A stretch of DNA of 64,000 nucleotides. It comes from a virus. Both the position numbers and the translations under genes were made by a program. The DNA lies in the IMG/VR virus record IMGVR_UViG_3300005841_000032, positions 46,428 through 110,427 of that record. One strand, 5' to 3'. Below, in pieces: positions 19,150 through 59,887 of the stretch. Under the pieces are notes generated by a model. The model was not told where the DNA came from. It did no database searches and saw only the letters and a list, made by a program, of their open reading frames with translations. Positions within the stretch are counted from its first letter, which is position 1. Every line of letters starts with the position of its first letter.

Positions 19150-20358
19150 TTATTCTAATTTCAAAGGATAATTTTCAGTCTTTTTCTTAAAAATATAATC
19201 GCCGCAATAACCAGTTCTTCCACTTAAATTATTACTAATTGCACCCCTATTCAATCCATATTTTTCGGCTGCAAGATAAATGCCATCAAATTCTTCTATA
19301 AATAAAAGGGTATGACGATTATAAGCTAAAATATGTTTTATAGTTAAATGATATTTTATCTTTTTACGAATAAAGTCAATACCTAATTCATCCATATCTC
19401 TTTTCTTCCACCAAAAATAACCATGACAATAATGATCCTTTTTCATTTCTCTGTTAATATTAGATTGAATGTTTTTTCTACCAAGCGACAATGCAGCCGC
19501 AACTTCTCCTTTATGTTCAGCGACTACATTCCCCTCTTTATCAATTTGAACAATAATTGAAACTGGTTTTTCGCTTACTCTTTTTAACCAATTGTCATAA
19601 TCTTTATATTTTGGTATTGGAGTTATTTTTAAAGGGAAGTCTTCGCTCTTTTTCTTTACAAGGTGCTTGTCTTTTATGTATCTACGCACACCTTTCAAAA
19701 CTTTTGAAATATTGCTACGATGAGTGTTAAATTTTCTAGCACATTGTCTTAGCCCAACAATTTCTTCAATGAAATAACCAGTATGCATATCATACACTAG
19801 AATATGAGTTTTTAATTTTTTAGCCTTTTCGCTATTTGCATTAGCAATTCTAAGTTTCTCTCTAAATTCATCTGTTTTACGAAACGCTGTTACTCTTTCT
19901 ACAAATTCTTCTTGCTGCCACAAAATTCTTAGTGTTTTATTTCTTTTATCAATGCTTATTTGACTCTGTTTTTTAGGCTTGTGACTATACGTATAACCAC
20001 GCATATCATTAACGCTGGGCTTTATATTAAAGCCATATTTATGAAACCTGTAATCATTCCATTTAGAATCTATATATTCTTGAGCATACAAAAATATATC
20101 TAAATACAATTGCTCTGTTTTAAATTGAATATTTATATCAGTATACTCAAGAATGTAGGCTCTAAATGAAGATTCTCCATAATTATCAAATGCCTCTAAC
20201 AACAAATTGTTTGGATGATAACTCCCCCTTAATGCAGATATATGCGCTCCAATTCTATTCTTAACATCGTAAGAAGAGCCTATATAAATTCTATTATCTT
20301 TTAGGCATTCTATACAATATACTCCCGATTCACCCCTAATATTGTCTTCAATTTGCAT
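19150..20358 (-). CDS. GIY-YIG homing endonuclease
   Basis: SGVYCI...IYIGSS...RIGAH; three NUMOD1-like C-terminal repeats. Confidence 0.9.
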   Translation of the reverse strand: MQIEDNIRGESGVYCIECLKDNRIYIGSSYDVKNRIGAHISALRGSYHPNNLLLEAFDNYGESSFRAYILEYTDINIQFKTEQLYLDIFLYAQEYIDSKWNDYRFHKYGFNIKPSVNDMRGYTYSHKPKKQSQISIDKRNKTLRILWQQEEFVERVTAFRKTDEFREKLRIANANSEKAKKLKTHILVYDMHTGYFIEEIVGLRQCARKFNTHRSNISKVLKGVRRYIKDKHLVKKKSEDFPLKITPIPKYKDYDNWLKRVSEKPVSIIVQIDKEGNVVAEHKGEVAAALSLGRKNIQSNINREMKKDHYCHGYFWWKKRDMDELGIDFIRKKIKYHLTIKHILAYNRHTLLFIEEFDGIYLAAEKYGLNRGAISNNLSGRTGYCGDYIFKKKTENYPLKLE

Positions 20359-22772: not shown

Positions 22773-24074
22773 TTACTTTGAAATAAATTCATTCAATTGA
22801 TCATTTGTCATTGCTGCTCTTTTTTTATCAGCTTCCCATCTATTGCAACAAGCATTTGGATGAATTTTATTGGGAGTATCTCCATCACTATCCTTATCAA
22901 CTTTTAAACATGACATTTTATCAATAATAAAATATTCACATCTCTTACATGAAAAGCCAGTATTATTTTCATTATACCCCGCTTCTTGTTTAGACACTAT
23001 TCCAAGCCAAGGTATTATAGGAGTATTTTCTCCCTTAGGGTCCATATGCATCCAAAATCCACAAGATCCAAATGGCTTTATACTTTCAGAAGCCCCCAAC
23101 ACAGCACATTTATTTGATTTGTTTTTACTAAAGACGCATTTATCGCACGTATACTGCGTTTCTGGCCTAAACATATATAAAGCAGCTTCCTTAGGGATTA
23201 GATTGGTCTTTTTTTTTACTATTTCAGTATCGCCTAAACCTTTTTCAATCTTATTAATTATACTCCATGTATTCTTGCATGACTCTTCGTCCATGCCATA
23301 AGTATCAATTAAATATGTAAGAACTTCTGCTTTGCTAAGCTCTTCTGATTCTATAGGTGTATCTTTCTTCTTTTTTTTCTTTTTGCCTTCTAACGAACCT
23401 TCTTTTAATGATTCTTGAGTTAGCGGTTTATCTATTGTTTCTGTTCCGGTTATGTTTCCGGCTGCCATTGCTTTTTCGATATTTAATTCCTTGTCAACCG
23501 TAGTACGTTCACCATTTTCATTTACGGTATCGATAATAAAATCACTACCGATTTCCGTTTCATATTCAGGAGATTCACCTTTAGTAATTATTACACTAGT
23601 GCCCTTGCATTTTGGATGAGGAGCGATAGCTAATCCATGAATTGTACTTTTTTTAATTCTCCTCTTGTCTTTCGGGTCACGCAATAAACCTTCACCCTCT
23701 ATAGAGTACCCTAACTTTCTGCTAGAAGAACTTTTAGATAATGTTTTTGTTAAATCAAATACCTTCTTTGCCATTTCTGATCCAGAATATAATTTTGATT
23801 TAACCATTAGTTTACCATCTTTTTTTTCAAATGAAAGCGGTTCACCTATAATCATTGATGGGTCTTTGTGCCCCAAATGGTTCCAGTTAACGAAGCCGCG
23901 GTGCATTAACTTAGTTAAGTCCATCCCATCAACTTCCAAAATATCTCCATCTAAATCGGCTCCCGTAGTTTCATCACTTACTACTCCGCCTACGATCATT
24001 ACTTCGTCACCATTTTCATCCGTAGACTTTTCAAGAATATCAAAGGGTACGAAATAGGAAAATTTATCATTCAT
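22773..24074 (-). CDS. Prohead protease with C-terminal Cys-rich (HiPIP-like) repeats (start revised to 24074)
   Basis: DLDGD, GFVNWNH, IIGEP, LGYSIEG protease motifs; two CxxC...C...C-x2-W units at the C-terminus. Confidence 0.85.
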   Translation of the reverse strand: MNDKFSYFVPFDILEKSTDENGDEVMIVGGVVSDETTGADLDGDILEVDGMDLTKLMHRGFVNWNHLGHKDPSMIIGEPLSFEKKDGKLMVKSKLYSGSEMAKKVFDLTKTLSKSSSSRKLGYSIEGEGLLRDPKDKRRIKKSTIHGLAIAPHPKCKGTSVIITKGESPEYETEIGSDFIIDTVNENGERTTVDKELNIEKAMAAGNITGTETIDKPLTQESLKEGSLEGKKKKKKKDTPIESEELSKAEVLTYLIDTYGMDEESCKNTWSIINKIEKGLGDTEIVKKKTNLIPKEAALYMFRPETQYTCDKCVFSKNKSNKCAVLGASESIKPFGSCGFWMHMDPKGENTPIIPWLGIVSKQEAGYNENNTGFSCKRCEYFIIDKMSCLKVDKDSDGDTPNKIHPNACCNRWEADKKRAAMTNDQLNEFISK

Positions 24075-25128
24075 AATAACTCCATTTAAATTTTTTACAT
24101 AAGCCATCTCTTCTAATTGAATTTCCAATCGCAGATGGCGAAACATCAAATTTCTTAGCTGCTGAACTCAATGATTTAAATACCTCAATTATTTCAAATG
24201 TTTTAGGATTTAATTGAGCTACTGATTTCTCAAAGTGAGGTGCGGGTATGGACTTGCCTTTATTCCAAACAGACTTATCGGCATTCAATGTTACCAATTT
24301 GAACAATAACTCTTCGCTAAAATCTTTTTCTCTAATCCAAATGCTCTTATTACAACTGTTAGTTTTGCCCCTTGCATTGTTATTAATAGCTACCGGATCA
24401 ATGCTATAAAATTTTCCTGCTAATAGAGATGAATCAAATTCGTTTATTTTATTCCCCTTCAAATCAAATTCGAATAGCTTGTAGCCCTTTTTCTTTGCAA
24501 GAATAATTTGTCTTAGTTTTTCTTTTGTTTCATCAGACTGCTTTTTACCTAAATGACTTTGTCTATTTCTTTCAATTTGGTCAGGCGTACACTTTTTACC
24601 AAGCATGCCGCTAGGTTTCCCTAAATGCTTGATTCTATTTTTTTCTTTTGCTTCGTCAGTATGCTTGCCTTTAAATCCAGTTGACCAAGTGCCATTTTTT
24701 AATTTAGTCGCTAAACTCTTTTCTATTGACTCTTTAGGCATTTTATAGCCAGCGCTAGTTTCGCCTCCATTAGTGAGATTAGTTAGCGGCCCCCTTTTTA
24801 AATCTGCTCGGCCAATAACTTTTACTAAATATTTTTCACTCTGGTTAGCAACGTTATTTGATAATCCATTATTCAACTGAATAATTATAGGCTCCAAACC
24901 TTCATTAATAATTGCCCTTATGGTATTTTGTTTGTGACTATTTTTTTTATAAGTTTCGCTAAATGATTCCCATAGATGAGCCGTTTTTCTATCACCCTCT
25001 CCACGACCAACATAAAAAGGTTGCGCTGGAAGAATAATATCTATTCCGGGAATTTTATATAGAATCCTTTTTCTAGGATCGCAGTAGACGTAATTGTAAA
25101 ATCGATTAGACGTGTTAACTAAGTTCAC
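24067..25128 (-). CDS. GIY-YIG (LEM-3-like) homing endonuclease (start revised to GTG 25128)
   Basis: YVYCDPR...PFYVGRG.GDR...H, GPLTNLTNGGE, NUMOD3 and NUMOD1 repeats. Confidence 0.85.
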   Translation of the reverse strand: MNLVNTSNRFYNYVYCDPRKRILYKIPGIDIILPAQPFYVGRGEGDRKTAHLWESFSETYKKNSHKQNTIRAIINEGLEPIIIQLNNGLSNNVANQSEKYLVKVIGRADLKRGPLTNLTNGGETSAGYKMPKESIEKSLATKLKNGTWSTGFKGKHTDEAKEKNRIKHLGKPSGMLGKKCTPDQIERNRQSHLGKKQSDETKEKLRQIILAKKKGYKLFEFDLKGNKINEFDSSLLAGKFYSIDPVAINNNARGKTNSCNKSIWIREKDFSEELLFKLVTLNADKSVWNKGKSIPAPHFEKSVAQLNPKTFEIIEVFKSLSSAAKKFDVSPSAIGNSIRRDGLCKKFKWSYYE

Positions 25129-25158
25129 GTCCTTAAAAATACGAAAGTCTATAAAAAC

Positions 25159-25189
25159 AAAAACCCCTTGCCTATTTCTAAGCAAGGGG
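25159..25189 (-). terminator. Rho-independent terminator
   Basis: CCCCTTGC...GCAAGGGG stem followed by T tract. Confidence 0.75.
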
Positions 25190-25746: not shown

Positions 25747-26784
25747 TCAAAAAAAACCTTCTGCCTTTTGAATAGTAGGAACTGAATCTATATTTAATTC
25801 AGGAAACTCCATTGCGATCAAATGATCTTTTAAATCAAAGAATAAATCAGCATCCATCCATTCATCTGATTTCATCCATTTAGCATTCTGGCTTTCACCG
25901 TCAAGTATTGCTACTTCACCTTGTGGATAAGCAGATAAATAAAATGCCCACTTTTTATCATCGCATTTAGCTTTACCTATGATCCACATTGATGATGGAT
26001 CGCATTCTAAATTTGCTTCTTCTTTAAGTTCTCTTGCGGCTGCTTGGTTAATACTTTCGCCTTCGTCGATATGACCTCCCGGTAAACACCATTGATTAGG
26101 TGCAACATCTTTTGCACTTGCTCTTTGAAGGAAAAGAATTTTTCCATCTTTCTTTACAATTACATTTGCATAATGTCCTTCAAAAGTAACGGCTTTTTCT
26201 ATTGTTTCTTCCACAATAGGTTCAGCTTCGCTTTTTTTTTGCTCTATCTGTTTTTTTTCAAATAGATCACTATCCGCTTTAACAATTAAATCAATAGATG
26301 TCACGATAGCACGAAGTTGATTTGTTACCTCTTCACCTTTAATTAAGCTCGTTTCTTGCCACGTTGACATTATATCTCCAATAGCCCTTTGTTCTTCTTC
26401 TGAAAGCAATGAAGTTAATTCAATAGATTTGCTTAATATTTCAGCTTCTAAATTATCTTTTTGATCTTGTTTATGATTTATTTTATCAGTTAGTTCTTTT
26501 GCTTTTCCTAAGAAATCATTAGTGATTCTATCTAATCTATCACTTAATGATTTCTTATTATAACTGCCTTCACTAGAACCTTTTTCAATCAATTTTTCAC
26601 AAGCTTGAATTTTTAATTCAAAATCATTTGAAACTGAATCAAATTCTACTTGAGCCTTTTTTAACTCTGATCTTAATTCAACCAATTCTCCGTCTACTTT
26701 TTCAAAAGTATCTATTGACTGTTCGTCTTCAAGAACAATACTCTTAATACCAGCCCACTCTCTTATTTTATTTAAAAAACTCAT
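25747..26784 (-). CDS. Coiled-coil plus Nudix hydrolase
   Basis: Nudix box GGHIDEGESINQAAARELKEEANL. Confidence 0.88.
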   Translation of the reverse strand: MSFLNKIREWAGIKSIVLEDEQSIDTFEKVDGELVELRSELKKAQVEFDSVSNDFELKIQACEKLIEKGSSEGSYNKKSLSDRLDRITNDFLGKAKELTDKINHKQDQKDNLEAEILSKSIELTSLLSEEEQRAIGDIMSTWQETSLIKGEEVTNQLRAIVTSIDLIVKADSDLFEKKQIEQKKSEAEPIVEETIEKAVTFEGHYANVIVKKDGKILFLQRASAKDVAPNQWCLPGGHIDEGESINQAAARELKEEANLECDPSSMWIIGKAKCDDKKWAFYLSAYPQGEVAILDGESQNAKWMKSDEWMDADLFFDLKDHLIAMEFPELNIDSVPTIQKAEGFF

Positions 26785-31211: not shown

Positions 31212-32195
31212 TCATTTGCTTAATTCTTTCATCCAATGATTAATCATTTCATCTAATGTTTGCTCAAAGGTATATTGAGGCATCCATCCAAGTAAATTTT
31301 TTGCTTTACTGGCATCGCCACAAAGATGATTCAATTCGGTTGGCCTAAAATATTTTGAATTGATCCTTACGTGCGTGTCAAAATTTAAATTCAATCTTGT
31401 AAATACATAATTAATCAAATCTCGTACAGACTGAGTTTTACCAGTAGCTATTATAAAATCATCTGGCTTTTCATAATTAATTATTTTCATTTGAGCTTTA
31501 CTGTAATCGCTAGCATGCCCCCAATCGCGATAAGAATCAAGATTGCCTATTTCTAATATATTAGTTTTAGACAACCCCAATTTTATTTTTACTGCCTCCT
31601 TAACAACTTTACTTGTTACAAAATTACTTCCTCTTCTAGGGCTTTCGTGATTGAAACAAATAGAATTACAAGCATGTAGACCATAAGAATGCCTGTAAAC
31701 CCTAACAATATGATAAGCATATAACTTAGCTACTCCATAAGGAGAAACCGGCAACATGGGGGTACTTAATCTTTGTACGCCATCTGCGTCACATGAATTA
31801 CCAAACATCTCGCTAGATGATGCTTGTAAAAACTTAGCTTGTGGGCAAATCTCCCTATATGCTTCTAAAATATTCAAAGTTCCTAGCGCATTAATTTGCG
31901 TCGTCAAACTTTGAATATCAAAACTAATTCTTACATGTGATTGCGCCGCAAGATTATATATTTCATCTGGCTGCGACTGTTTAAGTAAATTTCTAATCGA
32001 ATTTGTATCCAATAAATCGCCATACACGACCTCTATTCGATTATCTAAATGTGATATTCTGCTCTCTTGATGTTCAGGGGTACTATTGCGTCGAATCATA
32101 CCATAGACCTTATAGTTTTGATCTAATAGATGTTCTGCAAGATAAGAACCAGTTTGACCCGCTATTCCAAAAACAATAGCTTTTTTATTATTCAT
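31212..32195 (-). CDS. gmd: GDP-mannose 4,6-dehydratase (start revised to 32195)
   Basis: GQTGSYLAE, PDEIYNLAAQSHV, QASSSEMFG, SPYGVAK, FNHESPRRG, RDWGHA. Confidence 0.93.
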   Translation of the reverse strand: MNNKKAIVFGIAGQTGSYLAEHLLDQNYKVYGMIRRNSTPEHQESRISHLDNRIEVVYGDLLDTNSIRNLLKQSQPDEIYNLAAQSHVRISFDIQSLTTQINALGTLNILEAYREICPQAKFLQASSSEMFGNSCDADGVQRLSTPMLPVSPYGVAKLYAYHIVRVYRHSYGLHACNSICFNHESPRRGSNFVTSKVVKEAVKIKLGLSKTNILEIGNLDSYRDWGHASDYSKAQMKIINYEKPDDFIIATGKTQSVRDLINYVFTRLNLNFDTHVRINSKYFRPTELNHLCGDASKAKNLLGWMPQYTFEQTLDEMINHWMKELSK

Positions 32196-33042
32196 TTTTA
32201 TATTTCCATTTAAATCCCTTACATGTTTTAAGTCCATTATTGCCACTACAAAGATTAGATATATTGCCACATGCAAGTAACGAGCCGCATATATAAAGAC
32301 TTGCGGCACGAATAGTGGGAAACTCATTCAATACCGCTTCTGATACAGGATCAATTTGAATAACTGCTCTACTTACTGGATGCGGATGGGTTGCATAATA
32401 TTTCTTTTTAGATTCAGAATTATTCTTTTTCCTAACATCGTCATGCACCTGCTTAGAACTTGCAATAGATAATTTCTTTCTAGTTTCCTCCGAAACAATC
32501 TTTCCCTTATGCGCTCTACTTACTGCCACTCTATGTTCGATAGTTGGTATATAAAAACCACCATATAAATCTAATTTAGTTTTCAATCCCTTTTCAATAG
32601 ATTCTTTGCTCTTAACAGTGCCTGTAACTCTATTGGCAATTCTTTTACATTCAGCTTTAGAATGTTTCATAAATTTTCCACTTTTAGCTATCGGTAAAAT
32701 ATTAAAACCTAATCTTCTAAGCCGTGGGTCTTTTTTATTTGATTGAATATATTCTTGCGCAAACAAAAGGGTATCTAGGTAAAATTGTTCATTAACCTTT
32801 GCTAATCTTATTTTAAAATCATTATGGGATTCGTTCACTTCCTTAACAATAGTCTGGAGCACGTGCCAAATAAATGCTTCAACTCCATACTTATTATATG
32901 CCCTCTGTAAATACTTATTCTCATGCTTATTCAGCTTAAGTGCCCTAAAATGCTGATTTTTCCTTGCTGCCAAGTTAACTGCGCTACCAATATAAATCCT
33001 ATTGTTTGATAAGCAAGTTATCTTATAAATACCACTACTCAT
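32188..33042 (-). CDS. GIY-YIG homing endonuclease
   Basis: SGIYKI...IYIGSA...R...H; NUMOD3 GKIVSEETRKKLS. Confidence 0.9.
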   Translation of the reverse strand: MSSGIYKITCLSNNRIYIGSAVNLAARKNQHFRALKLNKHENKYLQRAYNKYGVEAFIWHVLQTIVKEVNESHNDFKIRLAKVNEQFYLDTLLFAQEYIQSNKKDPRLRRLGFNILPIAKSGKFMKHSKAECKRIANRVTGTVKSKESIEKGLKTKLDLYGGFYIPTIEHRVAVSRAHKGKIVSEETRKKLSIASSKQVHDDVRKKNNSESKKKYYATHPHPVSRAVIQIDPVSEAVLNEFPTIRAASLYICGSLLACGNISNLCSGNNGLKTCKGFKWKYKNE

Positions 33043-40776: not shown

Positions 40777-41391
40777 TCATTGTCCTTTCAATCCGTTATT
40801 TCCCGTTCTAACTACTACTATTGGTTCGAACTTCAAAGTTAATACTTTTTCTACATCTTTTATCCATCTATAATCTGCTGCCTTATACCCATCCCAATTA
40901 GCTATATTATTTTTACTATGATGCAAAAATAAACAAGGTGCGCCTATTTTACCTTTAACTATCTTTTTATTTTCTATAAAATCTTGTGGTGGTTTTGGTC
41001 TGCCTTTCCGCAACATCTGACAAATTACTCCTTCTTCTGGATTTGTTAACTTTGTCGAGATCGTCTCAAGGGAAAGACGGCTAAATAGAAAATCATCGTT
41101 GTCCAGAAATAAAAACCAGCCTTCGTTAACTAAATTCTTTAATTGATTAGAATAAAGATTCCAATAGAAGGGGTAATTCCTGTCTATCTCGGCATCGATT
41201 ATCCTAACATTAAAAGAATCATTCTCTGTCTGTTTTTCAGCATCTTTCCTTGCTTCTTCTGAATCACAGCAAATTATAACATTTAAATTTTTTACTATTG
41301 TTTGTTCTCTGACCGAATGTAAACAACGTCCCAATAATTCAGGACGATATTTATTGCGAATGAGAACGTTTATTAGGGGCTGACCGATCAT
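40777..41391 (-). CDS. GT2-like glycosyltransferase
   Basis: LINVLIRN, RCLHSVREQT, FLFLDNDD, ADYRW. Confidence 0.8.
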   Translation of the reverse strand: MIGQPLINVLIRNKYRPELLGRCLHSVREQTIVKNLNVIICCDSEEARKDAEKQTENDSFNVRIIDAEIDRNYPFYWNLYSNQLKNLVNEGWFLFLDNDDFLFSRLSLETISTKLTNPEEGVICQMLRKGRPKPPQDFIENKKIVKGKIGAPCLFLHHSKNNIANWDGYKAADYRWIKDVEKVLTLKFEPIVVVRTGNNGLKGQ

Positions 41392-41861
41392 TTCAATACC
41401 AATTCAGACTCTTTAACTAATTTGGTATTAAATCGTTCTATTACCAATTCAGCAGTAAATTTACTGCCGCCTTTTCCAGTACATGACTTAGAACAATATG
41501 GCCCCGCTTTACCTCTTTTTCTTTCAGTTAATACCCAATGTGCCTTTTCTCCTTCCCTGATAACATCTTTGTCGCAAACAGGACATATAAAGCCTACCAT
41601 TAATCTTTCAGCGTCTTGCAAAACATGAGTCAATCTATCTACAATTCTTAAATTACTTAATTCATCATTAGTAAAATCTTGATCTATATGATCAATAGTT
41701 TCATTGCCCATCAATTTTCTACCAATATGATGTTCAACTAGAAATTTTGGATAGCTAACAGTTGTGCGCTTCCCATTATTATCGATGCAAATATGCTTAC
41801 GTCCATCCTTTCTTAAATAAGGCCCATTTATATGGCCTGTATATAAATTACTTTTAATCAT
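41388..41861 (-). CDS. HNH homing endonuclease
   Basis: GRKLMGNETIDHIDQDFTNDELSNLR; CPVC...YCSKSC zinc motif; starts 4 nt after tRNA-Leu. Confidence 0.85.
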   Translation of the reverse strand: MIKSNLYTGHINGPYLRKDGRKHICIDNNGKRTTVSYPKFLVEHHIGRKLMGNETIDHIDQDFTNDELSNLRIVDRLTHVLQDAERLMVGFICPVCDKDVIREGEKAHWVLTERKRGKAGPYCSKSCTGKGGSKFTAELVIERFNTKLVKESELVLK

Positions 41862-41865
41862 ATTG

Positions 41866-41952
41866 TGCCCCGGGAAAGAATTGAACTTTCACGATCATTA
41901 CTGATCACAGAATTTTAAGTTCTGCTTGTACTACCATTTTCAACACCGGGGC
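41866..41952 (-). tRNA. tRNA-Leu (TAA)
   Basis: GCCCCGG/CCGGGGC acceptor, CAGAA-CTTAAAA-TTCTG anticodon arm, long variable arm, TTCAATT T-loop. Confidence 0.9.
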
Positions 41953-42066
41953 AAAAATAAACAAAGAAGCTCTACTCTGTTGGTCTTTTTACAAGGGCTG
42001 GAATGTGACACCTTTTCTCTGTTTAAATACAGACGCGCTCTCTGTTATACATGCGTAATTAAGAAG

Positions 42067-42140
42067 TAGCGGGAGCCAGACTCGAACTGGCGCATAAAAG
42101 CTTATGAGGCTTTCCTTCTACCAACTGAAAGTATCCCGCG
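42067..42140 (-). tRNA. tRNA with CAT anticodon (Met; initiator-like acceptor stem)
   Basis: CGCGGGA/TCCCGCT acceptor, AAAGC-CTCATAA-GCTTT anticodon arm, GCCAG-TTCGAGT-CTGGC T arm. Confidence 0.88.
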
Positions 42141-42147
42141 ATGTAAA

Positions 42148-42246
42148 AAAACAAGTGACTGTATGTTTCTAACTAATTTGGTTAGATGCCATTAACCCTA
42201 CAGGTAGGTAATTGCCTATTGACAATATTTTCGCACCACTTGTTTT
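42148..42246 (-). ncRNA. Candidate structured ncRNA
   Basis: 10-bp closing stem AAAACAAGTG/CACTTGTTTT with two internal hairpins, between promoter and tRNA. Confidence 0.4.
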
Positions 42247-42259
42247 ATTTTTCATATTT

Positions 42260-42290
42260 CAAAATTAATCTAAAATATCATTCCAACAAA
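42260..42290 (-). promoter_or_regulatory. Bacteroidota sigmaA-type promoter
   Basis: TTTG-N19-TAATTTTG matches the -33/-7 consensus. Confidence 0.7.
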
Positions 42291-42370
42291 ATAAACTATA
42301 CAATAAGCTAAAATTCCTCCAGTTGAAATAGTAAAAATGGGCAATAGTGTTTCCCATGTATTTTCTATAG

Positions 42371-42703
42371 CTACCATTCTTCTATGCTTGGCTCTGGCTT
42401 TAAGTGAGTATGTTTTTCGTTTTTGCATATTGTAGAGATTATCGTTGTTTCTCTCTTATCTAAGTCATTAATAAAAATTATCAACCCCGTATCAGTATTT
42501 TCAAACCAAACTGAATAAAGATCATCTTTACTGCCATTACTTAATACTAAATATTGCTTATTTCTTTTCTCTAATTTCAAATGCAAATCAATCGATTGAG
42601 ATATAATATGTAATGAATCTTTATCTGCAAATAATCCTACTCTTTCATATTTGCATTGCTGTCCATTTCCTAAAACTACATATAGCCAAAGAATAAATCG
42701 CAT
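42371..42703 (-). CDS. Hypothetical protein
   Basis: 110 aa ORF just downstream of tRNA-Thr. Confidence 0.45.
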   Translation of the reverse strand: MRFILWLYVVLGNGQQCKYERVGLFADKDSLHIISQSIDLHLKLEKRNKQYLVLSNGSKDDLYSVWFENTDTGLIIFINDLDKRETTIISTICKNEKHTHLKPEPSIEEW

Positions 42704-42713
42704 TCAATTTTTG

Positions 42714-42788
42714 AGCCCGTGGATGGAATCGAACCACCGACCTGTTGCTTACAAGGCAAACGCTCTAACCTACTGAGCTACATCGGGC
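42714..42788 (-). tRNA. tRNA-Thr (TGT)
   Basis: GCTC/GAGC D arm, TTGC-CTTGTAA-GCAA anticodon arm, GGTGG-TTCGATT-CCATC T arm; one bulged A in acceptor. Confidence 0.85.
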
Positions 42789-42934
42789 AATACACTGATT
42801 CTTTCTGTTTTAATTCCGTCAAATATAACTTCTACTTTCTTCAATTCAAACTTCTTTTCTTCAACTGCTTTCTTTTTCTTCACTTCTTCTTTGAAGAATT
42901 GCGGAATGATTCGTGTTTGCTGTTCTTGTTTCAT
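42770..42934 (-). CDS. Small Lys/Glu-rich protein overlapping the tRNA-Thr 5' end
   Basis: ATG 42934 lies just after the late-promoter motif at 42946-42956. Confidence 0.35.
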   Translation of the reverse strand: MKQEQQTRIIPQFFKEEVKKKKAVEEKKFELKKVEVIFDGIKTERISVLPDVAQ

Positions 42935-42941
42935 GTTTGAA

Positions 42942-43898
42942 TTATTTAAAAATACCATATTTGCGACTTAAATTTATACCATTACAATGACTTATCCAGC
43001 CATTATACGCGGCTACCGAATACTCATTCCTATTACTCTTAATCATTCGTTTAAAGTTCTCTTTTATACTTTTACGCAACAAAGAATAGTCAGGGAATAT
43101 TTTATAACCTAAGAAATCGATTCCTCTATCTTTTACCGGAAACACTTGATAATTATTCTTTATTTCCAATTTCAAATTATCCCATAAATACACTTGAATA
43201 TCTTCTCGCAGGTTATGAAGCCAATGTTTATCGTGATGCAGTATTAAAATGTCGTCACAATATCTAAACAAATATTTTACCCGTCTATCTTCTTTCAACC
43301 AATGATCAAAATATGTAAGGTAAAAATTAGCAAATAGGCCACTCAGGTAATTGCCTATCGGTAAGCCCGTTCCGCTATCTATAATTTCATCTAATAGCCA
43401 TAATAGCTTTCCATCTTTAAATTTTCGTCTCAGCAATTGTTTAAGTATTTCATTTGAGACATTTGGAAAGTATTTCTTAATATCCAATTTTAATGCATAC
43501 TTGGTTTCTTCTTTATTCCATAAAGCCGCTTTAACATCATAATATCCTCGATGAATTCCTCTACCAACAACGCAACTATACGTATTAGCTATAAATGATT
43601 TAGTTAGAATATCACCTATAACATTAACTATTGCATGATGACAGATACGATCCGGATAATATGGAAGACGCGCTATATCTCTTGCCTTTGGCTCATAAAT
43701 AGTGAAGTAAGAATATTCAGAAGTTTTATAAGTCATTTCTTTTAAACTTCGCTGCAAATCCTTAATATTCTCATCTTCTTGCTTTCGATGTTCAATTACA
43801 TCTCTATTCCATTTCTTCCCACGACTCGCATTTTTATCCGCCAACTTAAGATTATCTAAATCATAAATTTGCTCATATAAATTGCCAACTCTCTTCAT
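42942..43898 (-). CDS. DGR reverse transcriptase
   Basis: PDRICHHA, GRGIH, LKLDIKKYF, GLPIGNYLSGLFANFYL, RYCDD, GIDFLGY; 318 aa; no maturase/endonuclease domain. Confidence 0.96.
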   Translation of the reverse strand: MKRVGNLYEQIYDLDNLKLADKNASRGKKWNRDVIEHRKQEDENIKDLQRSLKEMTYKTSEYSYFTIYEPKARDIARLPYYPDRICHHAIVNVIGDILTKSFIANTYSCVVGRGIHRGYYDVKAALWNKEETKYALKLDIKKYFPNVSNEILKQLLRRKFKDGKLLWLLDEIIDSGTGLPIGNYLSGLFANFYLTYFDHWLKEDRRVKYLFRYCDDILILHHDKHWLHNLREDIQVYLWDNLKLEIKNNYQVFPVKDRGIDFLGYKIFPDYSLLRKSIKENFKRMIKSNRNEYSVAAYNGWISHCNGINLSRKYGIFK

Positions 43899-43909
43899 TT
43901 CTCTAAATA

Positions 43910-43972
43910 AAAGTCTCTTTCAATTACTTACTAAAGACTTTCCTTCTTACTTGATCTTTTGCCTAAGGGCAA
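43910..43972 (-). other. Structured TR-RT spacer (two hairpins)
   Basis: TTGCC-CTTA-GGCAA at 43959-43972 and AAAGTCT...AGACTTT at 43910-43941. Confidence 0.6.
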
Positions 43973-44011
43973 GGTTGACACATATTTAAATAGGTAGGGA
44001 AAATTTTTAGA

Positions 44012-44082
44012 GTTAGCCTCGCCTCCATATTCGAGTTGTAGTTCCAATTATTCGCATTAGAATTCAGCACTCAACTAGAAGA
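44012..44082 (-). repeat. DGR template repeat (TR)
   Basis: TCTTCTAGTTGAGTGCTGAATTCTAATGCGAATAATTGGAACTACAACTCGAATATGGAGGCGAGGCTAAC; AAY-rich, non-coding. Confidence 0.97.
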
Positions 44083-44100
44083 AACATTCTATGTGTAACG

Positions 44101-44676
44101 CTAAGCGGAAAGATAATCTTCATAAATATCTTTAAATTGTTTACCAGCATACAAAGCTGTTCTTTCATCCCTATATGAAAGCCCCGCCCCCAAAACCGAG
44201 TCGTAGTACCAAACACCCGCAACAGAAACCAGCACCCAACCAGAAGATTTTTTTTCGAACCAAGGGTACCACTTTGATTGAGATGAATTTTTATAGTCTT
44301 CCGTCCAGCCTTCATTAAGAACTTCTGCAATCAACTGAATTTTCGCAGCAGCATTCAATGCTTTTTGCTTCTTATTTTTTGGATTATTGAATGGAACAAC
44401 ATTCTCTTCCTCTTCACCTGCTAATTCAAGAATATCTTTCCATTTCAAATCACGATCAGTCAATGTGACTGATTTAAAAACATCAAAATACTTTTTCAGC
44501 ATTTCTTTCTGTGTTTCATTAGCATCGTTAAATGCTTTCTTGATCAAAGTTTCTTCTACCTCAATCGTATCGCCTGACTGCCATAAAGCAAGTTCAGTGA
44601 TTTTCTTTTGCCAATCTTGACATACTTGTCCGTAAATTGTTTGCAAATCTTTTCGTGAAATTTTCTGTGCTTTCAT
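44101..44676 (-). CDS. DGR target protein (191 aa)
   Basis: Contains the VR near its C-terminus; LNEGW...KWYPWF...YAGKQF scaffold. Confidence 0.93.
   Translation of the reverse strand: MKAQKISRKDLQTIYGQVCQDWQKKITELALWQSGDTIEVEETLIKKAFNDANETQKEMLKKYFDVFKSVTLTDRDLKWKDILELAGEEEENVVPFNNPKNKKQKALNAAAKIQLIAEVLNEGWTEDYKNSSQSKWYPWFEKKSSGWVLVSVAGVWYYDSVLGAGLSYRDERTALYAGKQFKDIYEDYLSA
44177..44247 (-). repeat. DGR variable repeat (VR)
   Basis: TCTTCTGGTTGGGTGCTGGTTTCTGTTGCGGGTGTTTGGTACTACGACTCGGTTTTGGGGGCGGGGCTTTC; 19 mismatches to TR, all at TR adenines. Confidence 0.97.
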
Positions 44677-44719
44677 TTGTTTTTGAATATTTTCCCGGTT
44701 TAGTAAAATTAACGTATAT

Positions 44720-46031
44720 TCATTTCTTCAAATTTAAGAAAGTATTTTTATGCTGCAAAGCTCCATTGGGAACTATTATAAATATTTGCGAATGCGCCTT
44801 ACTCTTTCCTATTGGTTCCCTTTTCTTCTTTTCAGCCACGCAAATAGGATATGGCACATTTGTTTTGTGAGTTGCTATTTTCACGAAGGAATTTATTTGA
44901 GAATTCCAACGGCCTTCGATTAGATCAAATAGTTTCATTTGATGAAATCATAGTCATCCATACTTGTTTTTAAGTTCAATATTTTTAGCTTTCATTTTTT
45001 GAAAACCAGTTTCATCAAAACTTGCACTTAGCACATCGCTTGCTTCTTGTTTCTTACCTAGTTGCGCTAAATGACTTGCATATATTCTTGCGCCTAATCC
45101 GTCTTTCAGATGCAATCTTATGTTTATTTCATTCACCTTTTCTTCTGCAATCCTTACGCAACTAGAATAAAACAAATCAACAATTTCATCCTGAGTTACA
45201 TTTCTTATGGTGCCGAATGGCTTCTTTTCTGCTCTACCATAAGCTATTATTCGACCCATCTTTCTACTGAATTGGTCACCATCACGACAAACAGCTAATC
45301 CCAATTTTAAATGAAAATAATCATTTCCAAAAGCATGATCTACTATTCCCACAAGAGTAAACCTATTGTCGGAATGATATACGAAATGTTGTTTTTCAGT
45401 TTTCATTTTTTTTAAGAACGTTTATTGATTATGTTCAATTATTTTTCTTACAAATCCATAGTAAGCAACCGATGCCAATGGGCAAATTACTAACCACCTG
45501 ACATACCATGTTGCATCTATACGATACATAAATGGAAAAGCAATAAACCAAAGCACAATATAAATTATAGTAAACCCGCTAACATCTCTCATATTGCTTC
45601 CAATAATATGTATCGGATTGTGCTCCATTTGTTAGGAGAAAATCTTTCAATTCCAAAGCCACCAATTTTACGCTTAAATTCTATTGAACAATCATTTCCC
45701 CAAACGCCAATAGCTTTTGTTTTTGTAATTCTATTAATAGTAGCAACAAAATCACTGAAAGTATTTTGCACTCTAACTCGATCTCCAATTTCTAATTCTG
45801 TTTTCATATAAATTCACCATTTTTAAAATCATATCCTAATTGATCTTCAAATTCTTTCATCAAATAATGCGTTTGTTGGAATGGTTCTATATGACACAAC
45901 TCGCTCATAAGCGCACTAGCAAAGTCTTTCGCTTCCATTTTGTCTAACCCCATTCTCCTAGAATGAATAAACCATTTTGCAAATTCAATAAATCCTTTTT
46001 GTTCTTTTTGAATTTCCTCTTTTGTTTTCAT
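44720..46031 (-). other. Five small hypothetical CDSs upstream of the DGR (44720-44938, 44954-45406, 45422-45592, 45589-45807, 45804-46031)
   Basis: Tightly packed and co-oriented; 45422-45592 has two hydrophobic helices; 44954-45406 has a C-x3-DQFSRKMGR motif common in phage proteins. Confidence 0.55.
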
Positions 46032-46210: not shown

Positions 46211-46357
46211 ATGAAAACAACTTACAACGTAATGGTGCAAAAATTTACACCTTCAAACACAAAATCATTTAAAGGCTTCAATGTCACTATTCAAGACAAA
46301 ATAAAGATTGAAGCGAAAAATCTCAAAAAGCTTCGCAAGTTTCTTGCCACTCTTTAA
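46211..46357 (+). CDS. 48-aa basic protein, only credible plus-strand gene
   Basis: MKTTYNVMVQKFTPSNTKSFKGFNVTIQDKIKIEAKNLKKLRKFLATL; own promoter; fills an otherwise empty gap. Confidence 0.6.
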   Translation: MKTTYNVMVQKFTPSNTKSFKGFNVTIQDKIKIEAKNLKKLRKFLATL

Positions 46358-47289
46358 ACCAAAAAATCTTGACCGTTAAACTTCACCAATACCTTTGGTC
46401 TGTTTGATGTTTTAGGTTTGCTCTTATCTGTTTCAAATGAGGTTCCGTTCCATACGGAACCTTCTTTATATTCTACCGCCAAACATCGACACCTCGGATG
46501 TATTGCGACTAAAGTACTTTTCCAGTCTTTTTGTTTCCTCCCGATGTTGCTTCCATTTGCCTCTAATTCTTTTAGTGTAAATATCTTTGGCTCACTTCCT
46601 TCTCCGCCTGTCAGGTAAAGCTTTACGCAACTTGGGCAAGCTGACGGTTGGACTCTGAACCACACTTTTGCTTTCTCGTTATCTCCGTCATTCTTTCTAA
46701 GCACCATTGCAGCCCTTCCTTCATTTAATGCAGTATGAGAGATATATTCTACCGACTTTCTGAAATCTCTACTCCAATCGCCCGTAAGACGTCCTATTTG
46801 CCTTGCTATCTCTTTCTTGCTTTTCCGATCTCCCGTTCCAGTTGCCATTTGATCCTTTAAATACTCTTCCTGATTTGCCCTTGCGTTCCCAAATTGGTTA
46901 CTGACTACATTGTTCACGTCTTTGAATATGCGCTCGTTTGCCAATCTTATATCGGACATTGATTGCATCTTTATACTATTGATCGTTGCCCTTTCTCTTG
47001 CATTCAAGGGAATGTATGCGCTGGAAGTCACATAATCTTTTAATTGATTAAATGTAATATTTTGAACTTGTTTTTCTGATAAAATTTTAGAAAGCAATCC
47101 AAGATGAAAGTTCAATTCTACTAAATCCTTACTTTCATCGTAAAGCTTATCGGCGTTTATTCCATTGTCCTTTAAAACCTGCTTTTCTCCATCTGAAAGA
47201 TAGTCCCCGCCCAATGTGGTTGCGCTGAATAAAGCTGTTTGCCTCTGAATGAGAGCCAGTATAGTTTGTACTTGTTGTGGAGATAACAT
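46354..47289 (-). CDS. Head morphogenesis protein (Mu gpF/SPP1 gp7-like; start revised to 47289)
   Basis: ACPSC...HPRCRC motif; downstream of portal. Confidence 0.8.
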   Translation of the reverse strand: MLSPQQVQTILALIQRQTALFSATTLGGDYLSDGEKQVLKDNGINADKLYDESKDLVELNFHLGLLSKILSEKQVQNITFNQLKDYVTSSAYIPLNARERATINSIKMQSMSDIRLANERIFKDVNNVVSNQFGNARANQEEYLKDQMATGTGDRKSKKEIARQIGRLTGDWSRDFRKSVEYISHTALNEGRAAMVLRKNDGDNEKAKVWFRVQPSACPSCVKLYLTGGEGSEPKIFTLKELEANGSNIGRKQKDWKSTLVAIHPRCRCLAVEYKEGSVWNGTSFETDKSKPKTSNRPKVLVKFNGQDFLV

Positions 47290-47293
47290 TCTT

Positions 47294-47368
47294 TCATCCT
47301 CTGGTAAGTAATCCAATAATAATCACAGTCAAGACTATAAGGGCTAGAATAATTGTTATTGACTTCAT
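47294..47368 (-). CDS. 24-aa single-TM micropeptide
   Basis: MKSITIILALIVLTVIIIGLLTRG; ATGA overlap with upstream stop. Confidence 0.4.
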   Translation of the reverse strand: MKSITIILALIVLTVIIIGLLTRG

Positions 47369-48008: not shown

Positions 48009-48393
48009 CTCTTCTTATAAAGAAGTTCACTGCCTCAATTCCAAAGGCTCCAGTTAACGTCCCAAATACAAATATCTCTCTTACTTGAACAGCGTAAAAT
48101 ACTTCAAGTAATCCAAATAAAACAAATAATTTAATGCACCACGCCGTAGAATAATGGATCAGCATTGAATTAAAATCTTCTTTATTAAATTTATTATCGC
48201 TATCCTCTATACCGTCCTTTAACCATTTTCTAAAACTTGGAACAAACATAAATCCCAACTCAGGCAAAAATAGCATAAAGCAAAAAATAGGGAATAGAAA
48301 ATGATAATCTATTCCTGCTAATGCCATTGACGCAAAGGCGGCAACGAAGCGCAATGAAAACATATACCCCAAAACAGAAATTATCTTTATCAT
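47995..48393 (-). CDS. Multi-pass membrane protein (holin candidate)
   Basis: Four hydrophobic segments and a basic C-terminus. Confidence 0.5.
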   Translation of the reverse strand: MIKIISVLGYMFSLRFVAAFASMALAGIDYHFLFPIFCFMLFLPELGFMFVPSFRKWLKDGIEDSDNKFNKEDFNSMLIHYSTAWCIKLFVLFGLLEVFYAVQVREIFVFGTLTGAFGIEAVNFFIRRGEKK

Positions 48394-50027
48394 TCTACGT
48401 TTACATATTTAGCTTCAAAAAATTCATCAAATGCTTTTTGAAATGGACTTTCCTCTTCCATTAAAAATGGATTTGTATTTGATTGTCTTTCTTCTTCTTT
48501 TTGTGAGTCTTGCTGATCTTGTTCTTGTTGCCCTTGCATTTCCATTTGCTGTTGCTGCATAAACAATGGATTCAAGGGAAGGTCGGCGGCTTTAGATTTA
48601 AGCGGTTTTAATTTTTTCCCAGCCCTTATCTCATTGGGAGTTAAATAAACAGTTGCAGCCTTTAATAGTCTTTCTTCTTCTTCAGATGCACTTTCAACCT
48701 CTAATCCAGCAAACTGGAATTCAAATTGTCTATTAGTAAGAGGGAAAATTATAAACTCATTAATCCAAGTCTGCATATAAGTCAATAAGGGTTTCAATCC
48801 CTTATTAATCGAATAATCTTTTTCCTGTTTACCTCCCTCCTTACTTCCCATTCCACCCTGCCTTGTACCTTGCAATGGGAAACCTATTTCTTCCGGCGAT
48901 ATTGTGTATACTGCACAGGCTAACTTAATCATCAGTTCATAGAATGCAGAATATTCCATGTCTCTATTGGTTTTCTGCATGTCAACCCAATCAACATTTT
49001 CAGCATCCAAAATCAAAGTTTTGCCGTTATTTTCAGCACCTGCGATCATTGCTTGCCAGTCGCGTCTTATTTGTTGTATGGCATCAGCCTGTATATTGCC
49101 TTTCTTTACAAACAAAGCTCCTTTTGGAGAGGAACCAGTTTTGAATATTGATCCATTATAACGATCTGCATTCAATAGATTAGTTACAGTAGTTATTAAT
49201 ATTTCTAATTCACTTGTCCCATATCCATTTGAATAAATACTTGTTGTTGGATTTCTTAATCCATAGCATAATTCCCAAGGATAAAATTCTGCTTTAATTA
49301 ACCCATCTATTACTTGAACATATTTGGGCAAGTATCCATTTACTCTTGTTCTTTCATGTTTATTTACATCGTTATTTGCCGTATCTGCAAACCTTACTGT
49401 TGCTCCATCTACTGCAACAAACATAGATGGCTTACCCATCCTTGTAGGTATTACCTCAAATGCAGCAAAGTCACCTACCAAAGAATCAGTAAGTACTTTT
49501 TTGCCAAACGTATCGAAATTATCTAAATCCCAAATGTTCTCTTCGTTACCGCAATTATTAATAAAATTGGTAAGGTATTCAATAATACGTTTATCCTGAT
49601 TCGTTAATTCATCTTCACTATTTACGCCTTTCTTTTTAAATTTGTAACCATTAGAATATCTATAGGGTTGAGGTTTAAGAAAATCACCTAGTTGATCTTT
49701 TCTTGTTTTAAGAATTGCAGCAATAACAGGAGTACGCGACATATTGCGTAATATGTTTCCTGTGATTCCGCCCGGGGAATAATATCCGTTTGTGCTGGAT
49801 ACATTGTACGGATCAATAATGATAGATTTCATTCCCTCAATCGGGGGCTTATATCTATCGTTTAATAAGTTGCTTTGCTGATAATAATTTTGCGCTTTAA
49901 ATATAGCGTCTACATCGCCTGACTTAACGGCGTTTTGAAGGGCTAACGCTTTTTGGATTTGTAATTTTCGTTCCGTTTCGTCAAACTCTCTAAGTTGCTT
50001 AGCGATATTTTGCCCATGAAGTGACAA
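48390..50027 (-). CDS. Portal protein
   Basis: AVDGATVR, RNPTTSIYSNGYGTSELE, CAVYTISPEEIGF, KGLKPLL, TPNEIR. Confidence 0.92.
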   Translation of the reverse strand: MSLHGQNIAKQLREFDETERKLQIQKALALQNAVKSGDVDAIFKAQNYYQQSNLLNDRYKPPIEGMKSIIIDPYNVSSTNGYYSPGGITGNILRNMSRTPVIAAILKTRKDQLGDFLKPQPYRYSNGYKFKKKGVNSEDELTNQDKRIIEYLTNFINNCGNEENIWDLDNFDTFGKKVLTDSLVGDFAAFEVIPTRMGKPSMFVAVDGATVRFADTANNDVNKHERTRVNGYLPKYVQVIDGLIKAEFYPWELCYGLRNPTTSIYSNGYGTSELEILITTVTNLLNADRYNGSIFKTGSSPKGALFVKKGNIQADAIQQIRRDWQAMIAGAENNGKTLILDAENVDWVDMQKTNRDMEYSAFYELMIKLACAVYTISPEEIGFPLQGTRQGGMGSKEGGKQEKDYSINKGLKPLLTYMQTWINEFIIFPLTNRQFEFQFAGLEVESASEEEERLLKAATVYLTPNEIRAGKKLKPLKSKAADLPLNPLFMQQQQMEMQGQQEQDQQDSQKEEERQSNTNPFLMEEESPFQKAFDEFFEAKYVNVE

Positions 50028-57971: not shown

Positions 57972-58415
57972 CCTTCAACTTTAATTGGCTTTCCCTTAGG
58001 CTTTGCTTTTTTGCCACGCCCTACTATTTCGCTTGCTTTCATTGCATCATTCATTTCTTCAAAATCCAATTTACTTTGAGCGTAAATTTCAATAATATCA
58101 AAATAAAACTCCAATATATTATTGTCATCTTTATCTTTTAAAAGATTTCGCAATCCACCGAATACTTTCTCAAATCGCTTGCTTCTCTTTTTCTTTTTCA
58201 TATAATTGACTTCAATCTAAATTTACCTTTGAAACATTGTTCAATAATTCATTAAGCTTTTCACATGATTCTTTGCTTAATCTATTTCCTCTTTCACTAT
58301 ACCATTCACAATTATCTGATTCGTAAAAAGCAAGTTGAGTAATTTCAATACCTCCTTCTTGAACAGATCCGCATACTACAAATGGAATCAATTTATTTAA
58401 TTTTTTAATAATCAT
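57959..58415 (-). other. Two small hypothetical CDSs (57959-58201, 58212-58415)
   Basis: Co-oriented ORFs downstream of terminase. Confidence 0.45.
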
Positions 58416-59887
58416 ACAAATGCACTATAAAATTCATTCACTGGTATCAATTTATTCAAAGCGTATACTGTTACGTCTACCGCTTCATCATGTTGCGCTT
58501 TAGGAAATGCAGTTAAGTAAGTCAAGTACTGATCTACATAACTTCCATTTACTAATTTTACTCTTCTAGCTTCTACCATTCCCGATACACTTGTTGCTCT
58601 TGCTACCTTATCGTCTTTTAAGAAGTCGCCAGTTATTTCAATTACATTCAACTTAGTTGCCGCTTTCATTTGTTGTGCTACTGACTTTCCATTCGCTTTA
58701 GGTTCAATATATATACAACTATTAAAAGTATAACCTGTCTGCTGTATATATTTCGGCAAAAAGTCAAGCAATTTAGGAAACTCCATTTTAACTTCCAAAA
58801 AATTAATAACATATATATCATTTCCCTTTTTAAAACAAGCAAGGATGCCAGTAAAATCATTTTCCTCATCTTCCGTAAACGCAGTATCTATAAAGAAATG
58901 AATGGGGCTATTATTATGATCTCTACTGACTTGTTCTGGTTCCATAATATCAAACCACCTACGCTTAAATATATTACCTTCTAATGGAACTGGCCTTTGT
59001 TGAAATTGTCCAGCGAAATATAAACTGCCCTTCTTTCTTTCTCCATTTAATACTTGTTCTGAAAAACGACTTGCCCAAAATAATCCGCCTTGTTCATCGT
59101 AATACTTTTTCAAATCTTTAGGCATTACTATCTGTTCATCATATTCAGCCGGTATACAGATATGTTCACATTCTTCAGGCCTACCTTCTTTTGGGTCCAG
59201 CATATACCCAAATAAATCTTTTAGATGCAAACGTTGGGCCACATTAATGCGTGAACCTATTTCCAATTGATTAATACGATTTGAAATAGTTGAATTCCAT
59301 CTTTCTATTGCACTATCTCTTTCTTTATCTGATGCAGCTATTTTGGGACTTAACGCATCATCTCCCACCAAAAAATCCCCTCCCATTCCTGTAACTGTTC
59401 CGTCCAATCCAAATGCATATCTAAACCCACCAGCCGTATTTGCATAATGACCCGCTCCTGAAAGATCACTTCTTAATTGAACTTTCCCACCATACAATCT
59501 TTGATACCAAGCCGTTTGAATTAAATCTTTTGATTGACGTGCAAGATTAACAGCAATTGTATCTGAATAAGAAAAACTTAAAAATTTAAAACAAGGATTC
59601 AATGTCCACAACCACGGCAACCAAATAACAGTTACTATCATTGACTTAGAAGAACGAGGGGGAACATTTATTAAAATGTCCTTTAATCTTTTTTCTCCTC
59701 TTAAAACTCTTAATCCCTCTTCTTGTAGTCTGTCACAAAGAAACTTTGCATGCCAATTTTCATCATATTGCAATCCCGGATGCAATTGACAGAATGCAGC
59801 TTTGTAAAATTCATAGTAGGATTGTTTGTAAATTCTACGTTCAAGATTTATTTCTATCTTATTTAATATGCTAAAGTCTTCACCCAT
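58412..59887 (-). CDS. terL: Terminase large subunit
   Basis: INVPPRSSKS Walker A variant, FLVGDD Walker B, QRLH, QFQQRP, FIDTA, FPKAQHDEAVD. Confidence 0.95.
   Translation of the reverse strand: MGEDFSILNKIEINLERRIYKQSYYEFYKAAFCQLHPGLQYDENWHAKFLCDRLQEEGLRVLRGEKRLKDILINVPPRSSKSMIVTVIWLPWLWTLNPCFKFLSFSYSDTIAVNLARQSKDLIQTAWYQRLYGGKVQLRSDLSGAGHYANTAGGFRYAFGLDGTVTGMGGDFLVGDDALSPKIAASDKERDSAIERWNSTISNRINQLEIGSRINVAQRLHLKDLFGYMLDPKEGRPEECEHICIPAEYDEQIVMPKDLKKYYDEQGGLFWASRFSEQVLNGERKKGSLYFAGQFQQRPVPLEGNIFKRRWFDIMEPEQVSRDHNNSPIHFFIDTAFTEDEENDFTGILACFKKGNDIYVINFLEVKMEFPKLLDFLPKYIQQTGYTFNSCIYIEPKANGKSVAQQMKAATKLNVIEITGDFLKDDKVARATSVSGMVEARRVKLVNGSYVDQYLTYLTAFPKAQHDEAVDVTVYALNKLIPVNEFYSAFV

Follow-up and report, generated by a model that had tools for sequence, protein, structure and literature searches.

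A minimal two-gene DGR of a Bacteroidota phage and its small soluble target, a protein assigned to family PC_00007

We found that the DGR in the last 64 kb of a complete 110,427-bp IMG/VR virus genome (the 64-kb stretch being the window analyzed here) is a genuine, mutagenic retroelement of two genes, encoding a target and a reverse transcriptase (RT), and that the target, a small soluble protein, is by its sequence a member of the catalogued family PC_00007. The best-supported reading of the sequence evidence, and one proposed earlier in the literature, is that the target would be a non-virion intracellular binder; we hold with moderate confidence that this minimal DGR would supply a hypervariable binder of this kind to phage-host or phage-phage conflict. 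The sequence-only reading of this DNA had put the locus forward as its best candidate for an undescribed system, a suggestion that fell, since the family is already known as PC_00007 (Roux et al. 2021, PMC8144416) and through the CLec3 proteins t120 and t121 (Wu et al. 2018, PMC5758913).

Anatomy of the DGR

All genes in the window lie on the minus strand, and the DGR comprises two genes arranged as target, TR, RT, and lacks Avd. The target gene (44101..44676, minus strand) is supported by its open reading frame, by a match to phrog_11581 (E 5.7e-15), by homologs and by AlphaFold2 models. VR (44180..44247, minus strand), recognized as one copy of a repeat pair, occupies codons 144-166 in frame, such that residues 144-166 of the 191-aa target are variable and 24 constant residues follow; the VR-encoded peptide and constant tail described from the sequence were thus correct. 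TR (44015..44082, minus strand; 68 nt) begins 18 nt past the target stop codon. Between TR and the RT gene lies a 116-nt spacer (43899..44014, minus strand) with stem-loops predicted by folding only, which is presumed, on the BPP-1 model, to be the 3' part of the DGR RNA. The RT gene itself (42942..43898, minus strand) encodes 318 aa with matches to RVT_1 (7.6e-14) and phrog_1423 (1.4e-115).

TR and VR form a 68-nt direct repeat with 75% identity, in which 17/17 mismatches fall at TR adenines; 17 of the 20 TR adenines are changed in VR (11 to G, 6 to T), and three extra 3' bases (44177-44179) would add two A-to-T changes, bringing the count to 19/22. Seven TR codons are of the AAY type, and the theoretical VR repertoire is ~2e11 peptides. 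Three features by which a DGR is recognized were found, namely TR/VR differences at adenines only (17/17 over 68 nt), an in-frame VR near the 3' end of the target gene (codons 144-166 of 191) and an adjacent RT of the DGR lineage (RVT_1, phrog_1423; 48-58% identity to 66 cassette RTs). The suggested check for additional VRs was run as an A-tolerant scan of the whole 110,427-bp genome, and no second VR was found.

A 7-bp inverted repeat, CTTTCAT-N6-ATGAAAG (44162..44181, minus strand), identified from the sequence and with RNAfold, overlaps the VR 3' end and has no counterpart after TR; it may be a target-recognition hairpin. It is preceded by a G-rich run (VR GGGGGCGGGGC vs TR GGAGGCGAGGC), a candidate IMH. 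In 24 relatives, we found no conserved hairpin 3' of VR, the stems there being short, weak and inconsistent in position. Since the equivalent hairpins in relatives are weak and inconsistent, we only infer a target-recognition role for this inverted repeat.

Genome context of the cassette

The window phage is a phage of Bacteroidota and, to judge from its portal, a 110-kb SPO1-like myovirus; the nearest relatives of the portal are in Chryseobacterium phage MA9V-3, Bacteroides DAC phages and SPO1-like myoviruses. Along the minus strand, the DGR cassette (42942-44676) is preceded by the terminase (58412-59887), the portal (48390-50027), a 320-aa gene for which our guess is head morphogenesis (46354-47316) and small unknown ORFs (about 44700-46031). 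It is followed by three tRNAs (41865-42788), by HNH, glycosyltransferase and sugar-nucleotide genes further downstream, and by the prohead protease (22773-24149), the major head protein (20433-21941) and the baseplate wedge (2076-3290). No integrase was found among the ~40 window ORFs scanned.

The tRNA genes, which follow the RT immediately and share its strand, are Leu-TAA, Met-CAT and Thr-TGT (41865-41952, 42066-42140, 42713-42788), and a 62-aa ORF (42770-42958) that overlaps tRNA-Thr is probably no gene. Several ORFs resembling GIY-YIG or HNH homing endonucleases are interspersed with the structural genes (11009-11998, 19150-20358, 24067-25185, 41388-41861), some of them adjoining the major head and protease genes. 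A Nudix hydrolase, a nucleotide-sugar epimerase and a GT2 glycosyltransferase (25747-26784, 31212-32327, 40777-41391) lie between the portal and the protease, and form a sugar-modification cluster within the morphogenesis region.

A promoter-like site of the Bacteroidota type, TTTG-N19-TAAATTTG (44729..44759, minus strand), identified by consensus match only, lies 53 nt before the target ATG; this consensus has 15 matches in the window, compared to 5.9 expected. A terminator-like hairpin (46335..46347, minus strand), likewise identified by consensus match only, follows the 320-aa gene and bounds, on the upstream side, the run of small genes of which the DGR is the last element. Since both sites fit such an arrangement, the DGR cassette is probably in its own transcription block.

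The placement of the target ~30 kb from the tail genes was right, given the positions of the baseplate wedge (2076-3290) and the major head gene (20433-21941), but the portal and the 320-aa gene are just 1.7-4 kb upstream of the target. Unlike the cassettes of relatives, that of the window lies inside a mosaic morphogenesis region, between the portal and major head genes, and this position counts against an intracellular role for the target.

The target family and its cassettes in related phages

With the target as query, phmmer found 50 homologs of 125-230 aa (best 1.7e-51), none with a Pfam domain, while a profile search of 1.84 billion representatives yielded 5,052 clusters (50% identity) at E<=1e-3 and 3,539 at E<=1e-10. 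Family members are mostly 150-165 aa in length (median 158 aa), with some tandem duplications of 250-350 aa; they are acidic to neutral, with no signal peptides or TM segments. The family occupies >460 loci in IMG/VR, almost all of them in Bacteroidota phages or prophages, and 134 confirmed loci in GTDB species genomes, again almost all of Bacteroidota (Chitinophagaceae, Flavobacteriia, Sphingobacteriia, Bacteroidales and Cytophagales).

The family alignment has a hypervariable stretch that coincides with the window VR and lies among conserved flanks (ALNEGWxPDW, K-YPWF, GSRLCF and AxYAGKQF). Column entropy is 2.3 bits in VR, compared to 1.3-1.5 in the flanks, and N121, G123, W124, K135, P138, F140, A177 and F181 are invariant or nearly so. 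Four near-identical natural proteins (P0036, P0039, P0043 and P0044) differ solely in VR, and the comparison of their sequences shows natural diversification in these relatives.

Most relatives have the same kind of cassette, the contexts compared being those of IMG/VR and GTDB loci. An RT that is 48-58% identical to the window RT lies ~200 nt downstream of the family gene in 66/80 viral loci, and 63/66 of these RT-bearing cassettes have A-only TR/VR pairs, with TR just upstream of the RT. At least two VRs (two or three), each in a tandem paralog, are present in 59 of the 66 cassettes, and in the three closest relatives of the window cassette (L002, L003 and L050) the RT is flanked by a target on one side, ahead of it, and by a paralog behind. 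The window shows the layout by which PC_00007 was recognized: VR occupies the same place in the hairpin-loop, and TR and RT come immediately after the gene. Directly after the RT, 56/80 related cassettes have a basic ORF of ~100 aa (median pI 9.0, phrog_19665, no Pfam; for example L010:8086-8382 and L023:7917-8213), which may be an Avd-like accessory.

The neighborhoods of these cassettes are rich in genes of DNA metabolism. Annotated neighbors in relatives include DNA polymerase, exonuclease, a Gp2.5-like SSB, Mu-like transposase A/B and an ATPase, and L002, L003 and L050 sit between helicase, primase, Sak4-like and 3'-5' exonuclease genes. The PHROGs encountered most often among the 115 nearest large neighbors (from ~60 loci) were those of DNA methyltransferases, exonuclease, DnaB-like helicase, primase/helicase, hydrolases, HNH endonucleases and DNA polymerase; head or tail families were absent from the 25 commonest.

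We also searched 50,697 phage records with the window protein by tblastn and obtained no match, whereas a typical family member used as query reached LoVEphage and crAss-like phages. Cultivable carriers of the family include LoVEphage, Phocaeicola phage PV4-TP1 and Bacteroides phage BI-TP1. In crAss-like phage cr56_1, gp09 (L086:4980-5384) is a full-length homolog of the core (hhalign probability 98.4%) that is surrounded by small genes of unknown kind; no RT is annotated there within 5 kb, and the protein may be a non-diversified relative of the scaffold. Thus, the scaffold may also exist outside DGR cassettes.

No fusions with fiber, Ig or collar domains were found among the longer family proteins; the only fusions there were with a small DUF1566/Lcl_C target and with a weak MazG-like tail, both of which are probably products of read-through or assembly. 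The former is P0200, a metagenome protein of 402 aa in which one ORF holds DUF1566/Lcl_C (a DGR target domain of the CLec2 type) and a complete family member, and which may be two adjacent targets read through.

Features peculiar to the window copy

The window cassette departs from its relatives at several points. Its RT has the motifs YCDD and IGNYLSG (codons ~190-199, window 43300-43330), whereas 55/60 related RTs have YADD as the catalytic box and 58/60 have the signature SQ (IGxxxSQ) in place of SG. Its target is single, with no tandem paralog. The 110-kb genome has no match to Avd (PF05635) at E<=1 and nothing homologous to the small basic ORF found downstream of the RT in relatives. The lack of Avd is no bar to membership among DGRs, since DGRs without it have been documented (Wu et al. 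2018, PMC5758913).

TR and VR also differ at codons of interest. Codon 147 of TR is an in-frame TGA, where VR has TGG (W147); thus an unmutated copy of TR would truncate the target. TR adenines also fall within the codons of the family-conserved residues G163 (GAG) and R165 (AGG). VR restores the consensus Gly at position 163, and it has Gly at position 165, where 131/143 relatives have Arg. Since Gly replaces this near-invariant Arg165, the window allele may be non-functional; either this VR allele is impaired, or position 165 may be more tolerant than it appears. Given the RT without the usual SQ, the missing Avd and accessory genes and the Gly at Arg165, ongoing activity of the DGR in this phage is best treated as putative. 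The only near-identical copy of the target (P0001; 132/133 residues), on a 925-bp metagenome contig, ends at residue 133, just before VR, as expected if VR heterogeneity breaks assemblies, and leaves the window with the one full copy from this phage.

Properties and predicted fold of the target

The target was described from its sequence as a soluble protein of 191 aa with no signal peptide or TM segment, and this description was borne out: the 22-kDa protein is hydrophilic (pI 5.5, GRAVY -0.66) and has no TM- or signal-like stretch, the maximum KD19 being 1.38 and itself inside VR. Residues 1-69 form two helical repeats at the N-terminus, and residues 70-191 are a conserved core of 120 aa within which VR lies. 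AlphaFold2, run with a 145-sequence alignment, gave a pLDDT of 90.4 for the whole protein, and 93.1 with a pTM of 0.88 for residues 70-191. The N-terminus of the model forms two strand-helix-helix units, and the core has three helices, a single beta-hairpin (135-143, 146-155), a loop and two C-terminal helices. VR makes up the second strand of this only hairpin and the loop that follows, the part of the model with the lowest confidence.

Searches with the model and the sequence yielded little outside the family. The best Foldseek matches in the PDB had E 0.76 for the whole model and 1.4 for the core domain, with no C-type lectin entries among the matches listed; VIA-align (wide) gave nothing above noise for either; and matches in BFVD and the ESM Atlas were only to uncharacterized phage proteins, some from crAss-like viruses. 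Pfam, NCBIfam and PDB sequence searches with the target found no significant family, and the target has no similarity to head or tail PHROG or Pfam families. When profiles were compared, the C-terminal 299 residues of the hankyphage target did align over 41 columns (probability 78%, E 1.9e-5), limited to the VR hairpin and the GSRL motif. Since the alignment covers this hairpin and motif, the VR module is of the CLec3 type. Thus, the structure check that had been suggested, with a CLec-like fold in mind, gave models with pLDDT 90-93 and a CLec3-type VR hairpin by profile, but no solved structure matched above noise.

Relation to described systems

The family has been catalogued before. In the catalog of Roux et al. 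(2021, PMC8144416), PC_00007 is labeled 'Phage_other' and is one of two large viral target clusters scored as non-structural/unknown, in this case because PhANNs called 1.6% of its members structural; the authors caution that such clusters may be uncharacterized structural proteins. Look-ups of motifs and gene ids in the supplements of that paper identified IMG genes 2576065990/91, 2585424986 and 2588220293/94 as family members, labeled PC_00007, viral, FCB group and DGR clade 1; primary targets there adjoin secondary ones. Wu et al. (2018, PMC5758913) placed the small members t120 (123 aa) and t121 (131 aa) in the VR class CLec3, described the smallest targets as lectin or Ig folds alone, and listed 'CH1' proteins, small and acidic, among the possible accessories of avd-less DGRs. 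The window protein shares with PC_00007, t120 and t121 included, the sequence family, the motifs ALNEGW, YPWF, GSRLCF and YAGKQF, the small size, the position of VR at ~0.7-0.8 of the length and an RT of the clade-1 type of FCB-group phages. It is a divergent member, 25-50% identical to the others, with a doubled N-terminal helical unit. It is also the sole target in its cassette, whereas tandem primary and secondary targets are a trait of PC_00007, and the cassette further differs in the stop codon in TR, in having no accessory ORF after the RT and in its place in the morphogenesis region of a 110-kb myovirus.

A second comparison is with the distal DGR targets of Quimbyvirus and LoVEphage. 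The LoVEphage protein QVQ57199.1 (194 aa), matched by the typical family member, is a homolog of the window target that likewise lies away from tail genes; it is flanked by cytosine and adenine methyltransferases, radical SAM genes and an RtcB ligase. Its residues 131-168 correspond to a VR with 19 A-only mismatches over 113 nt to a TR adjacent to a tail-collar-fiber gene and the RT, such that one TR serves both the VR region next to the tail-collar fiber and this remote target, ~15 kb from the RT. The LoVEphage protein differs in belonging to a long-insert subfamily, represented also by P0036 and with 30 extra residues, that has a 113-nt VR, and in being a remote second target, while the VR of the window target has 68 nt and is served by a TR and RT of its own right next to it. 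A part in phage-host conflict or counter-defense had been suggested for the distal target of Quimbyvirus by Benler et al. (2021, PMC8008677), who described a 'defence island' around it. The methyltransferase/RtcB island of LoVEphage resembles that one, and the analogous LoVEphage target is the one for which homology to the window family was computed. Distal second VRs and an undeciphered role of DGRs in gut prophages were also reported by Dahlman et al. (2025).

The cassette resembles that of BPP-1 (Mtd, Avd, TR, bRT) in adenine-specific mutagenic retrohoming from TR to VR, in the VR near the 3' end of the target gene, in the AAY codons of TR and in the G-rich tract and hairpin at the VR 3' end. 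[quoted passage not shown] The CLec3 target of the hankyphage (Bacteroides phage p00) shares Bacteroidota hosts and an alignable VR hairpin and GSRL(A/C)F motif, but it has ~2,245 aa, adjoins tail genes and has nothing alike outside the 41 columns; since VR alone aligns, we rejected identity with this target. Tentaclins (Baykov et al. 2023, PMC10743442) are second DGR targets of gut phages and also have a hypermutated hairpin, but the model of the window protein has no beta-rich Ig-like domain, its topology is another one and its VR is C-terminal; identity with tentaclins was ruled out on topology. Nor does the target resemble a phage tail fiber or receptor-binding protein in homology or position: it has no tail PHROG or Pfam match and lies ~30 kb from the baseplate genes, and its relatives lie among replication and methylation genes.

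Discussion

To our knowledge, all experimentally understood phage DGRs diversify receptor-binding tail proteins. We read the window target as a non-virion hypervariable binder because it is small, soluble and unlike tail fibers, and because the cassette sits among DNA-metabolism and methyltransferase genes in >60 related loci. We favor a place inside the cell for this binder because it is soluble and has no structural homology, and because the family has replication, methylation and early-gene neighborhoods and tandem repertoires. The proposal of a non-tail hypervariable binder made from the sequence alone has thus gained from the non-tail context of its relatives, and its further idea of intracellular counter-defense is reasonable yet not new, since the family has been catalogued and a role in phage-host conflict has been proposed (Benler et al. 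2021).

We considered that the target might instead be an unrecognized virion or adsorption accessory, such as a small adhesin, a fiber-tip adaptor (functionally like T4 gp38) or a capsid or fiber decoration, whose loop binds cell-surface or environmental glycans and whose gene happens to lie apart from the tail genes. Predictors of structural proteins perform poorly on small, novel proteins, and the window gene does lie between the portal and head genes. An origin as an adhesin is plausible since the VR segment, through the hairpin and GSRL alignment (41 columns, 78%, E 1.9e-5), is homologous to that of the giant, tail-adjacent hankyphage target of 2,245 aa. Moreover, the LoVEphage TR is shared by the VR region adjacent to the tail-collar fiber and a protein of the PC_00007 family, and the caution of Roux et al. 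(PMC8144416) applies to just such clusters. However, the target resembles no head or tail PHROG or Pfam family, >60 relatives have replication and methylation neighbors, PhANNs scored 1.6% of the cluster as structural (Roux et al. 2021, PMC8144416), and the longer proteins have no fiber, Ig or collar fusions. We regard a virion accessory as rather unlikely, yet as a serious rival.

Another reading is that the target acts against competing phages or mobile elements, as a sensor or exclusion factor, a diversified 'antigen receptor' guarding the infected or lysogenic cell instead of inhibiting host defense. Many carriers are temperate or Mu-like (transposase A/B beside the cassette; integrases and a repressor in LoVEphage), several tandem paralogs per cassette would suit a repertoire, and a published account (PMC10907252) includes DGR-diversified putative antigen sensors in bacterial conflict systems. 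No effector domain, however, is fused to family members or consistently adjacent, and the window phage is, by its portal, a 110-kb SPO1-like myovirus with no integrase among the ~40 ORFs scanned; a sensor of this kind is quite improbable. That the target mainly serves the DGR itself, standing in for Avd or assisting retrohoming, with its diversification incidental, would suit a genome that lacks Avd (PF05635) and the ~100-aa basic ORF found after the RT in 56/80 relatives, as well as the small acidic 'CH1' proteins of avd-less DGRs (Wu et al. 2018, PMC5758913), but it is very unlikely, given a LoVEphage member ~15 kb from its RT, the full-length homolog cr56_1 gp09 with no RT annotated within 5 kb, and a strongly conserved VR position with A-only variation across >120 VRs, which points to selected diversification.

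If the target is a non-virion intracellular binder, the system might work as follows. By the established DGR mechanism, for which BPP-1 is the paradigm, the RT would reverse-transcribe the TR RNA, placing random bases opposite adenines. The resulting cDNA would then replace VR, such that up to 13 codons of the 23-residue hairpin-loop could be recoded, yielding ~2e11 variants; the G-rich VR end and the 7-bp inverted repeat may mark the target for retrohoming. The target protein would be made inside the infected cell and act outside the virion, where its conserved helical scaffold would present the hypervariable loop to a variable partner in phage-host conflict. The most plausible partner would be a polymorphic host defense factor or DNA-associated factor, and progeny phages that differ in VR could each deal with other host strains.

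A more far-reaching proposal, which we consider possible but doubtful, is that the 120-aa core is a new minimal scaffold for DGR hypervariability, distinct from C-type lectin and Ig folds, and that the family is a phylum-wide set of intracellular, phage-encoded adaptive binders that neutralize polymorphic host defense or DNA-associated proteins, a repertoire-based form of counter-defense.

Across the phages of Bacteroidota, among them highly prevalent ones of the human gut, the family comprises thousands of sequence clusters, and to these the window adds a minimal, single-target, Avd-less version in a large myovirus. Its compact scaffold could serve as a small evolvable binder. If the family does act inside the cell, phages would use targeted hypermutation beyond adsorption.
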